Below, one piece after another: positions 63,032 through 64,000 of a stretch of 64,000 nucleotides of DNA. The stretch's first letter is position 1. The number at the start of each line of letters is the position of its first letter. Made by a program: the position numbers and the translations under genes. The notes below the pieces were generated by a model. That model saw only the letters and a program-made list of their open reading frames with translations. It did no database searches and was not told the origin of the DNA. Origin of the DNA: Candidatus Enterousia sp. (GTDB lineage Bacteria > Pseudomonadota > Alphaproteobacteria > Rs-D84); contig JAZLBQ010000001.1 in NCBI GenBank assembly GCA_045613785.1, positions 2,571 through 66,570 of the forward strand, written 5' to 3'.

Positions 63032-63060
63032 TTGACAGAAGGGGGGGGGGTCAGATAAAA
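63032..63060 (+). promoter_or_regulatory. Near-consensus sigma-70 promoter whose spacer contains a G10 homopolymer; candidate phase-variable promoter.
   Basis: TTGACA (63032-63037). The spacer gaa-GGGGGGGGGG-tcag is 17 nt. ATAAAA / TAAAAT -10 (63055-63061). The downstream gene starts at 63135. Confidence 0.5.
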
Positions 63061-63134
63061 TAAACCAAAAGGTGTTAAAATTTTTTTTTAGCATTTTATA
63101 GAATGTTTTTGAAAGAAACAGGAGAGGAAATCAG

Positions 63135-64000
63135 ATGAAACGTGTGTTTATCAGGTTGTTTGGCTGTGTCTTGTCTGCAATCGGATTGGGGGCGTCGTAT
63201 GATACGACAATGACGCTTGTGATGGGCAAAGACAAGGCGCCAGGTTCAGCGTGGGCGGCAGCAAATGACAGTTGTTATTATAATTCTGGCTGTATTCCAT
63301 CAGGAATGTATACTAGTTCGTCTGGTATAACAGGTATAACAAGTGAGTGTAATAATGAAGATGGTGGGAAGTATAGCTATCATGTTCTTTTACGGCCTTT
63401 TTATGTTGGTTGGCTTAACAAGAGTTATTCGGGAACACCTATTACTGGAGAGTGGCCGTTGAATTTTGGCGGCAATAGTCGTGTGGATATCGATTATACC
63501 TTTAGTGGGACAGGTGGTATTTATCCACTTCAAGGGTCGTTTTATAAGTGTACTTCCAATACGCCGCAGGCCTCGACCACATTGAGCTTGTGTAGTCGTT
63601 ATGATGGTATTGGATATGGGACATCCACTGGTGTGGGTGATAGTCCAGATAATTTGTCTTTTAGAAACGGTTGTGTTCTAAATAGTGAAGAAGTTGGTGG
63701 AGTAAGTTATGATAACTATTATGCTGGCTCTAAAAGATATGGTGCGGTATATATGTATTCTCCTCAGCCGTTTATAGATTTGGGTTGTTGTTCGTATGGG
63801 GGGGGGTCTGGCTCTTCTGGTTCTACTTCTTCTGGTTCTGGTTCTTCTGGCTCTGGTGCTGCTTCTACTTCTGGAACAACTACGTCATGCAAGTGTTATT
63901 ATGCACAAGCGACACAGGAATATTCTTATTATTATTATAAAACGGCCTCTTCTACAGATACAGCTGGATGGGTTTATACACATACAGTTCCTTTTTATGA
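63135..64000 (+). CDS. Partial CDS (5' part; runs off the window end) for a secreted Cys-rich protein with a Ser/Gly linker.
   Basis: I translated it by hand: MKRVFIRLFGCVLSAIGLGASYDTTMTLVMGKDKAPGSAWAAANDSCYYNSGC... The frame is open to position 64000. A GGAGAGG RBS lies upstream. It contains GCCSYGGGSGSSGSTSSGSGSSGSGAASTSGTTTSCKCYY, encoded by a ggttct/ggctct repeat. A G9 tract at 63798-63806 lies in the CDS. Confidence 0.6.
   Translation, partial: MKRVFIRLFGCVLSAIGLGASYDTTMTLVMGKDKAPGSAWAAANDSCYYNSGCIPSGMYTSSSGITGITSECNNEDGGKYSYHVLLRPFYVGWLNKSYSGTPITGEWPLNFGGNSRVDIDYTFSGTGGIYPLQGSFYKCTSNTPQASTTLSLCSRYDGIGYGTSTGVGDSPDNLSFRNGCVLNSEEVGGVSYDNYYAGSKRYGAVYMYSPQPFIDLGCCSYGGGSGSSGSTSSGSGSSGSGAASTSGTTTSCKCYYAQATQEYSYYYYKTASSTDTAGWVYTHTVPFY

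Follow-up and report, generated by a model that had tools for sequence, protein, structure and literature searches.

The window analysed here, a stretch of 64,000 nucleotides from Candidatus Enterousia, ends inside a gene for a predicted exported, cysteine-rich protein that follows clpB. A candidate promoter with a run of ten G residues in its spacer precedes this gene. The features of the region, all on the forward (+) strand, are listed below; L005, L007, L008 and L016 are homologous loci.

62955–62992 (+): hairpin of the form A8-stem-T9 just past the clpB stop codon, likely a bidirectional intrinsic terminator (−10.6 kcal/mol, z = −2.2)
63005–63031 (+): T-rich stretch (T7, T10) in the position of an UP element, adjoining the −35 box
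63032–63037 (+): −35 hexamer TTGACA, from the consensus scan; identical in L005, L008 and L016
63038–63055 (+): promoter spacer of 18 nt, gaa-G10-tcaga, from the sequence and the promoter alignment
63040–63263 (+): conserved 5′ module (G tract onward, 5′ UTR and first 43 codons), 98.7% identical to L007
63041–63050 (+): G10 homopolymer, candidate slipped-strand switch, from the run listing; A-G10-TCAG also occurs in L007
63056–63061 (+): −10 hexamer TAAAAT, from the consensus scan; equally spaced in L005 (TAAAAT) and in L008 and L016 (TACGAT)
63075–63104 (+): weaker promoter-like site TTAAAA-18-TAGAAT (9/12) inside the presumed 5′ UTR, from the consensus scan; kept in L007
63120–63127 (+): putative ribosome-binding site AGGAGAGG; GGAGAGGAAA is kept in all family loci
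63135–64000 (+): predicted cysteine-rich exported protein, first 288 codons; the ORF leaves the window
63135–63197 (+): hyperconserved leader MKRVFIRLFGCVLSAIGLGAS, a predicted Sec-type signal peptide
63798–63806 (+): in-frame G9, GGG GGG GGG, encoding Gly222–224
63807–63874 (+): imperfect TCT/GGT Ser/Gly repeat, a low-complexity linker joining two Cys-rich halves

The clpB gene (60902–62959) encodes a 685-aa protein without the N-terminal domain, and the ClpB model matched only from position 148. The hairpin behind it was not listed by the terminator scan, as it has too few G-C pairs; this terminator likely insulates the downstream promoter from clpB read-through. Different genes lie downstream of clpB in loci L010–L013, whose ClpB proteins are 90–92% identical. 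Since this synteny is not conserved, the search anchored on ClpB gave no further copies of the promoter. In L010 (1979–4032) and L011 (1890–3819) clpB is split into two ORFs, which could reflect a frameshift or a sequencing error. All three T-runs of at least 9 nt in the 64-kb window lie within 62980–63089, in one intergenic region, and runs of T9 (L008) and T8 (L016) occupy the position that matches the T-rich stretch upstream of the −35 box.

The arrangement TTGACA-18-TAAAAT agrees with the consensus at 11 of 12 positions, the −10 hexamer alone at five of six. A homopolymer of at least about 8 nt, here G10, stands between the −35 and −10 boxes and takes up 10 of the 18 spacer positions. Direct reading bore out the order and coordinates of TTGACA, gaa, G10, tcag and ATAAAAT given in the original prediction. 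The 17-nt spacer that it had deduced, however, requires ATAAAA as the −10 box, which matches at three of six positions and does not have the final T; with TAAAAT, the spacer is 18 nt. Nor does the promoter presently have an optimal spacing of 17, as had been claimed, and the homologous promoters all show 18 nt in a gap-free MAFFT alignment. It had further been expected that a change of one G in either direction would leave the optimum. This is correct for a gain, which leads to a worse spacing of 19 nt, but not for a loss, as 17 nt would probably be equal or better. With a spacing of 18 rather than 17 nt, the tract would act as a graded or asymmetric control and not through a two-sided fall from the optimum. 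A 73-nt leader carrying AGGAGAGG separates the −10 box from the ATG at 63135. A search of 62900–63300 against Rfam at a permissive threshold gave no match, and folding of the 5′ UTR revealed nothing remarkable.

Promoter-like sites with at least 11 of 12 consensus matches number eight in the window compared with 1.9 in simulations (4-fold), with spacers of 17 (n = 5) or 18 nt (n = 3). This enrichment indicates that the sigma-70-type consensus holds for this organism. In L005, the promoter reads TTGACA-caccccggatttatcaga-TAAAAT, and in L008 and L016 it reads TTGACA-tggtcggggtataacgga-TACGAT, in each case with a non-repetitive 18-nt spacer; all three align to the window in MAFFT without a gap between the hexamers. 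Hexamers and spacing (TTGACA-18-TAnnAT) are kept across the window and these loci, and the sequence of the spacer is free. The common arrangement argues that the promoter is real and that its spacing is constrained. At the level of sequence, it supports a functional promoter in the window and supports the view that G10 gives this promoter the ancestral, presumably active spacing. Other family members have no such tract in their homologous promoters, so it is not a regulatory trait of the whole family. Between the close relatives L008 and L016, three T-runs in a 270-nt span differ in length (T8/T10, T9/T8 and T5/T6; L008:300–480 versus L016:90–268), which suggests that changes in homopolymer length accumulate in the lineage, unless these differences are sequencing errors.

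Long G-runs exceed the expectation from composition. A first-order Markov model of 64 kb predicts 0.51 runs of at least 8 nt, 0.12 of at least 9 nt and 0.029 of at least 10 nt, and the window contains four, two and one, respectively, at a G+C content of 41% and with a longest C-run of at most 6 nt. Both runs of at least 9 nt fall within the single unit of the cysteine-rich gene, and the runs of G8 and longer are confined to this unit and to an autotransporter with Pmp repeats, two exported proteins. All G-runs of at least 6 nt lie on the + strand, and the window as a whole (1–64000) shows a strand asymmetry, with 15,367 G versus 10,968 C and 20,271 T versus 17,394 A.

The tract has one counterpart, in L007. 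This Logan contig (SRR32406973) encodes a protein with 70% identity to that of the window (P0001) and opens with A-G10-TCAGATAAAAT, which the window has at the same place, so that the tract is G10 in both sequences of the window-type promoter (window and L007; n = 2). Over the 224 nt that run from the tract through codon 43, the two are 98.7% identical, whereas the rest of the gene falls to 59–86% identity per 100-column block. The near-identity of the module means that the shared G10 may reflect recent common descent and not stability, and with this possible recent shared origin the comparison neither shows nor excludes instability of the tract. Scans of JGI metagenomes with the tract and its right flank, and with the family profile, found nothing. 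The L007 contig ends in a (TTAGT)n pentanucleotide repeat (L007:1500–1534) about 150 nt past the gene, and both of its ends are simple repeats.

The full-length product, P0001, starts at the ATG at 63135 and comprises 426 aa. Its leader has a basic n-region, an 11-residue hydrophobic core and a putative small-x-small cleavage site before YDTT; the call of a signal peptide is a manual assessment of the leader. With a signal-like N-terminal leader and a mature part containing 16 Cys, the product agrees with its earlier description as a signal-peptide-bearing, Cys-rich protein. On the same manual assessment, the features of the leader and the 15–17 Cys of the mature parts across the family, which are also rich in Ser, Gly, Thr and Tyr, point to an exported or surface product. 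A Tat signal was considered and rejected: the motif is KRVFIR in the window and RRAFIR in P0003–P0005, and Pfam and NCBIfam report no such family at E ≤ 0.01. A lipoprotein was likewise rejected, with LFGC just three residues past Arg7 and Cys11 replaced by Arg in P0027 and P0028. Neither Pfam nor NCBIfam matched the P0001 family (E ≤ 0.01), and exact-protein look-ups of ClpB and P0001 returned no record. Confidence in the AlphaFold2 model, which has a beta-rich core, is only partial (mean pLDDT 55.6), and a PDB fold search with this model gave no match.

Two further points of variation had been proposed within the coding sequence. The in-frame G9 was confirmed at 63798–63806. With one G added, the frame yields a Trp/Phe-rich tail and terminates at residue 268; with one G removed, it becomes Leu-rich and is open to the window end. 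We counted G9 as an in-frame tract in which a one-base change can truncate the product, the layout of a translational switch. In L007, the corresponding position holds no G-run but GGC AGC GCT GGT GGC. The proposed ggttct repeat is present and encodes Ser and Gly, but it is imperfect and not conserved: TRF reports periods of 6, 9, 15 and 21 with 66–83% matches for 63807–63874, and the length of the linker varies widely across homologues. Owing to the absence of G9 from L007 and the imperfection of the repeat, both are weaker candidates than the promoter tract. G9 could add a translational switch, which we rate lower because the run is not conserved. The other frames of 63807–63940 are very hydrophobic, one being Leu/Val-rich and one Trp/Phe-rich, so that a frameshift in G9 would append a tail resembling a membrane anchor in place of the C-terminal half.

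The family is tiny: when 1.84 billion representatives were searched exhaustively with a profile, no more than 18 relatives emerged. A scan of genome collections assigned it to 'Candidatus Enterousia' and to related MAGs of Alphaproteobacteria, with several paralogues per genome and several family loci at a contig start. All family members (P0001–P0028; window 63135–63209) open with the leader MKR(A/V)FIRLFGC(V/I)LSAIGL..SYDTT, which is almost invariant while the rest of the proteins are 20–45% identical. Its codons differ synonymously between species, which shows that selection acts at the protein level. The conservation of the leader exceeds the needs of a generic Sec signal.

In two ENA assemblies (L014 and L015), the gene occupies one and the same site, which follows Pom, a 211-aa ORF and DUF3078. 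When the two loci were compared (L014:6001–7278 versus L015:6001–7176), the 5′ flank proved 99.97% identical over 6.1 kb, through codon 41. It is followed by a core of approximately 900–1,000 nt without blastn similarity, in which the proteins are 10–42% identical, and 98.5% identity resumes for the last 57 codons and beyond. Judged from these alignments, the whole core is swapped between conserved ends in near-isogenic backgrounds, as would be expected under diversifying selection. The pattern resembles that of the Anaplasma Msp2/P44 type, in which, as in L014 and L015, identical N- and C-terminal ends enclose an unrelated centre at the same chromosomal site in near-isogenic strains. However, the Msp2/P44 type has no sequence homology to the Cys-rich family, and no donor pseudogene cassettes were seen here: the scan of genome collections showed multiple full-length paralogues per genome and no truncated cassettes. 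A diversifying core raises the prior that expression of the gene has also been made variable.

Based on these findings, we propose that the G10 run in the promoter spacer is a functional volume or phase switch of the porA/tp0126 type, a reading towards which we lean with modest confidence. That the length of the tract varies, that the TTGACA-18-TAAAAT promoter is used and that expression changes with spacing is inferred. In the hypothetical scenario, (i) the sigma-70-type promoter behind the clpB terminator would drive the exported Cys-rich gene; (ii) slipped-strand mispairing during replication should alter G10 by one G at high frequency; (iii) G9 would set the spacer to 17 nt, with probably equal or higher activity, G11 would set it to 19 nt and should be weak, and tracts of at least G12 or at most G7 should switch the promoter off; (iv) a clonal population would then mix cells with differing amounts of the exported protein, in a heritable and reversible manner. 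A clean ON/OFF switch is not predicted, since at 18 nt the loss of one G would not silence the promoter.

Homopolymers in or next to promoters are known to control multigene families of variable surface proteins, as we propose for the window. The vlp genes of Mycoplasma hyorhinis have a poly-A tract in the promoter spacer, and the 5′ region and leader are conserved among the paralogues; in fim2 and fim3 of Bordetella pertussis, a poly-C tract separates an activator site from the −10 box. The vlp genes encode lipoproteins, whereas the leader in the window fails the lipobox test, and, in contrast to vlp and fim, the tract is present here in one examined family member only (the window gene and its counterpart L007). 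The analogies to fim, opc and vlp drawn in the original prediction are fair, but porA and tp0126, with poly-G between −35 and −10, are closer. In porA of Neisseria meningitidis, the length of this poly-G sets the spacing and thereby a graded expression of the surface protein (PMC3639595; PMC7864442). The placement of the tract is the same as in the window, and phylum, gene family and host context differ; length variation and its effect on expression have been proven experimentally for porA, whereas both are predictions for the window. In Treponema pallidum, the OmpW homologue tp0126 likewise has poly-G between −35 and −10, with best activity at 17 nt, and the poly-G of tprL, just upstream of the transcription start, ranges from 7 to 11 G's within isolates (PMC7864442). 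T. pallidum and the organism of the window are both host-associated with reduced genomes, although the proteins are unrelated. Most tpr genes, unlike the gene in the window, have their tract upstream of the start site and not in the spacer, and variation of the treponemal tracts has been demonstrated via fragment-length analysis. The locus has the defining layout of promoter-spacer homopolymer switches and is a plausible new candidate in a lineage and a family without such a description.

Alternatively, the spacer could be static, its length constrained and G10 simply what fills it at present, perhaps after growth of a short run such as the GGGG in L008, with the gene being constitutive or otherwise controlled; we consider this unlikely, though deserving of serious weight. 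The family would then vary through recombinational replacement of the gene body and not through slippage, and it plainly diversifies via core replacement. The non-conservation of the coding G9, the retention of G10 in both sequences although their gene bodies have diverged, and a total of 18 nt equal to that of the non-repetitive homologues fit such a spacer as well. However, the G10 is approximately 30-fold unexpected from composition, and its presence in both sequences may stem from the recent common descent to which the 98.7% identity of the 5′ module points. To our knowledge, G10 runs are intrinsically unstable in all bacteria studied, which also counts against a static spacer.

It is improbable that the working promoter lies elsewhere, for example at TTAAAA-18-TAGAAT (63075–63104), with the tract upstream of the core promoter and either irrelevant or effective only by altering how an upstream element or an activator site is phased, as in the Bordetella fim and T. 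pallidum tprE/G/J promoters. Although this second site is present and kept in L007, a 9/12 match is no better than chance, as the scan of the 1.3-kb region gave four promoter-like sites compared with 3.2 in shuffles, and it is TTGACA-18-TAnnAT, not the second site, that is conserved in L005, L008 and L016. If active, the downstream site could bypass the G10 promoter and free expression from the tract. The possibility that the run is an artefact, either poly-G from two-colour Illumina chemistry or, as raised with the original prediction, a mis-assembly of low-complexity sequence, can be discounted as highly improbable: the start of the L007 contig exactly at the tract does indicate that assemblers struggle there, but the tract of the window is interior to a long contig, both of its flanks form a coherent promoter, the identical A-G10-TCAG junction recurs in the independent L007 assembly, and G10 makes the spacer total equal to that of the homologous promoters. 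The start of L007 at A and G10 was also considered as a sign of length heterogeneity and rejected, as a de Bruijn break of this kind does not match the branch point expected of mixed lengths.

Candidatus Enterousia and the other members of the order Rs-D84 have genomes of less than 1 Mb, are known only from metagenome bins and have a lifestyle that is unknown; Enterousia are uncultured gut Alphaproteobacteria that lack a respiratory chain (PMC12306168). If the G10 run is a switch as proposed, a phase-variable promoter ahead of a hypervariable exported protein would give the first tangible lead on how these bacteria interact with hosts, partner cells or phage, and would also single out the protein family that matters for this interaction. 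The mechanism itself would not be novel; what makes the case worthwhile is its lineage, its gene family and a prediction open to direct test. We regard the Cys-rich family, with its invariant leader and swapped core, as the more unusual part compared with the switch. A broader and rather doubtful extension, which we offer tentatively, is a layered contingency system in Enterousia-like bacteria, in which a lineage-specific family of Cys-rich exported proteins with an invariant leader and a swapped core has, in the strain of the window, also acquired the G10 and G9 switches. The invariant leader would then imply a dedicated export or sorting step. Such a system would point to strong frequency-dependent selection at the surface by host immunity, phage or a partner cell, with the family as the main variable interface.

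Elsewhere in the window, the autotransporter (24591–28514, 1307 aa), which has Chlamydia-type Pmp repeats, contains in-frame G8 runs at 26732–26739 and 26825–26832. They encode the GG of GGA motifs and could be additional sites of slippage. Counted overall, GGG-GGG pairs show no enrichment (4 of 184 compared with approximately 3.3 expected), which makes these tracts only weak candidates. Five large ORFs of 717–1242 aa (1609–5337, 6627–9485, 9828–11981, 12004–14508 and 19784–23128) have no Pfam match and none in NCBIfam that is significant; the sole NCBIfam match among them is a weak one of 19784–23128 to HblD (E = 0.0024, with 16.9 bits where the cut-off is 650).

Several other family loci have a conserved upstream region of approximately 230 nt in common (L001:3741–4000, L002:1–201, L004:3741–4000, L009:3741–4000 and L014:5741–6000). 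This region, which could represent a leader RNA or the site of a regulator, is absent from the window's version. It holds a terminator-like hairpin on the reverse strand and two ATGCC(G/T)AATCCAAA boxes; CGGT follows the first of them and GGACCG the second. At the first box, L014 reads CGGTCC, the exact reverse complement of GGACCG. In further Enterousia genomes, several copies of short palindrome-rich repeats (e.g. ...cattccggggcttgaccccggaacccaggtaatg...) flank family genes (L009:3457–3800, L009:5290–6140, L001:5230–5700 and L005:5100–5400), and poly-G/C runs of 8–9 nt occur in the same flanks of L009, L001 and L005.
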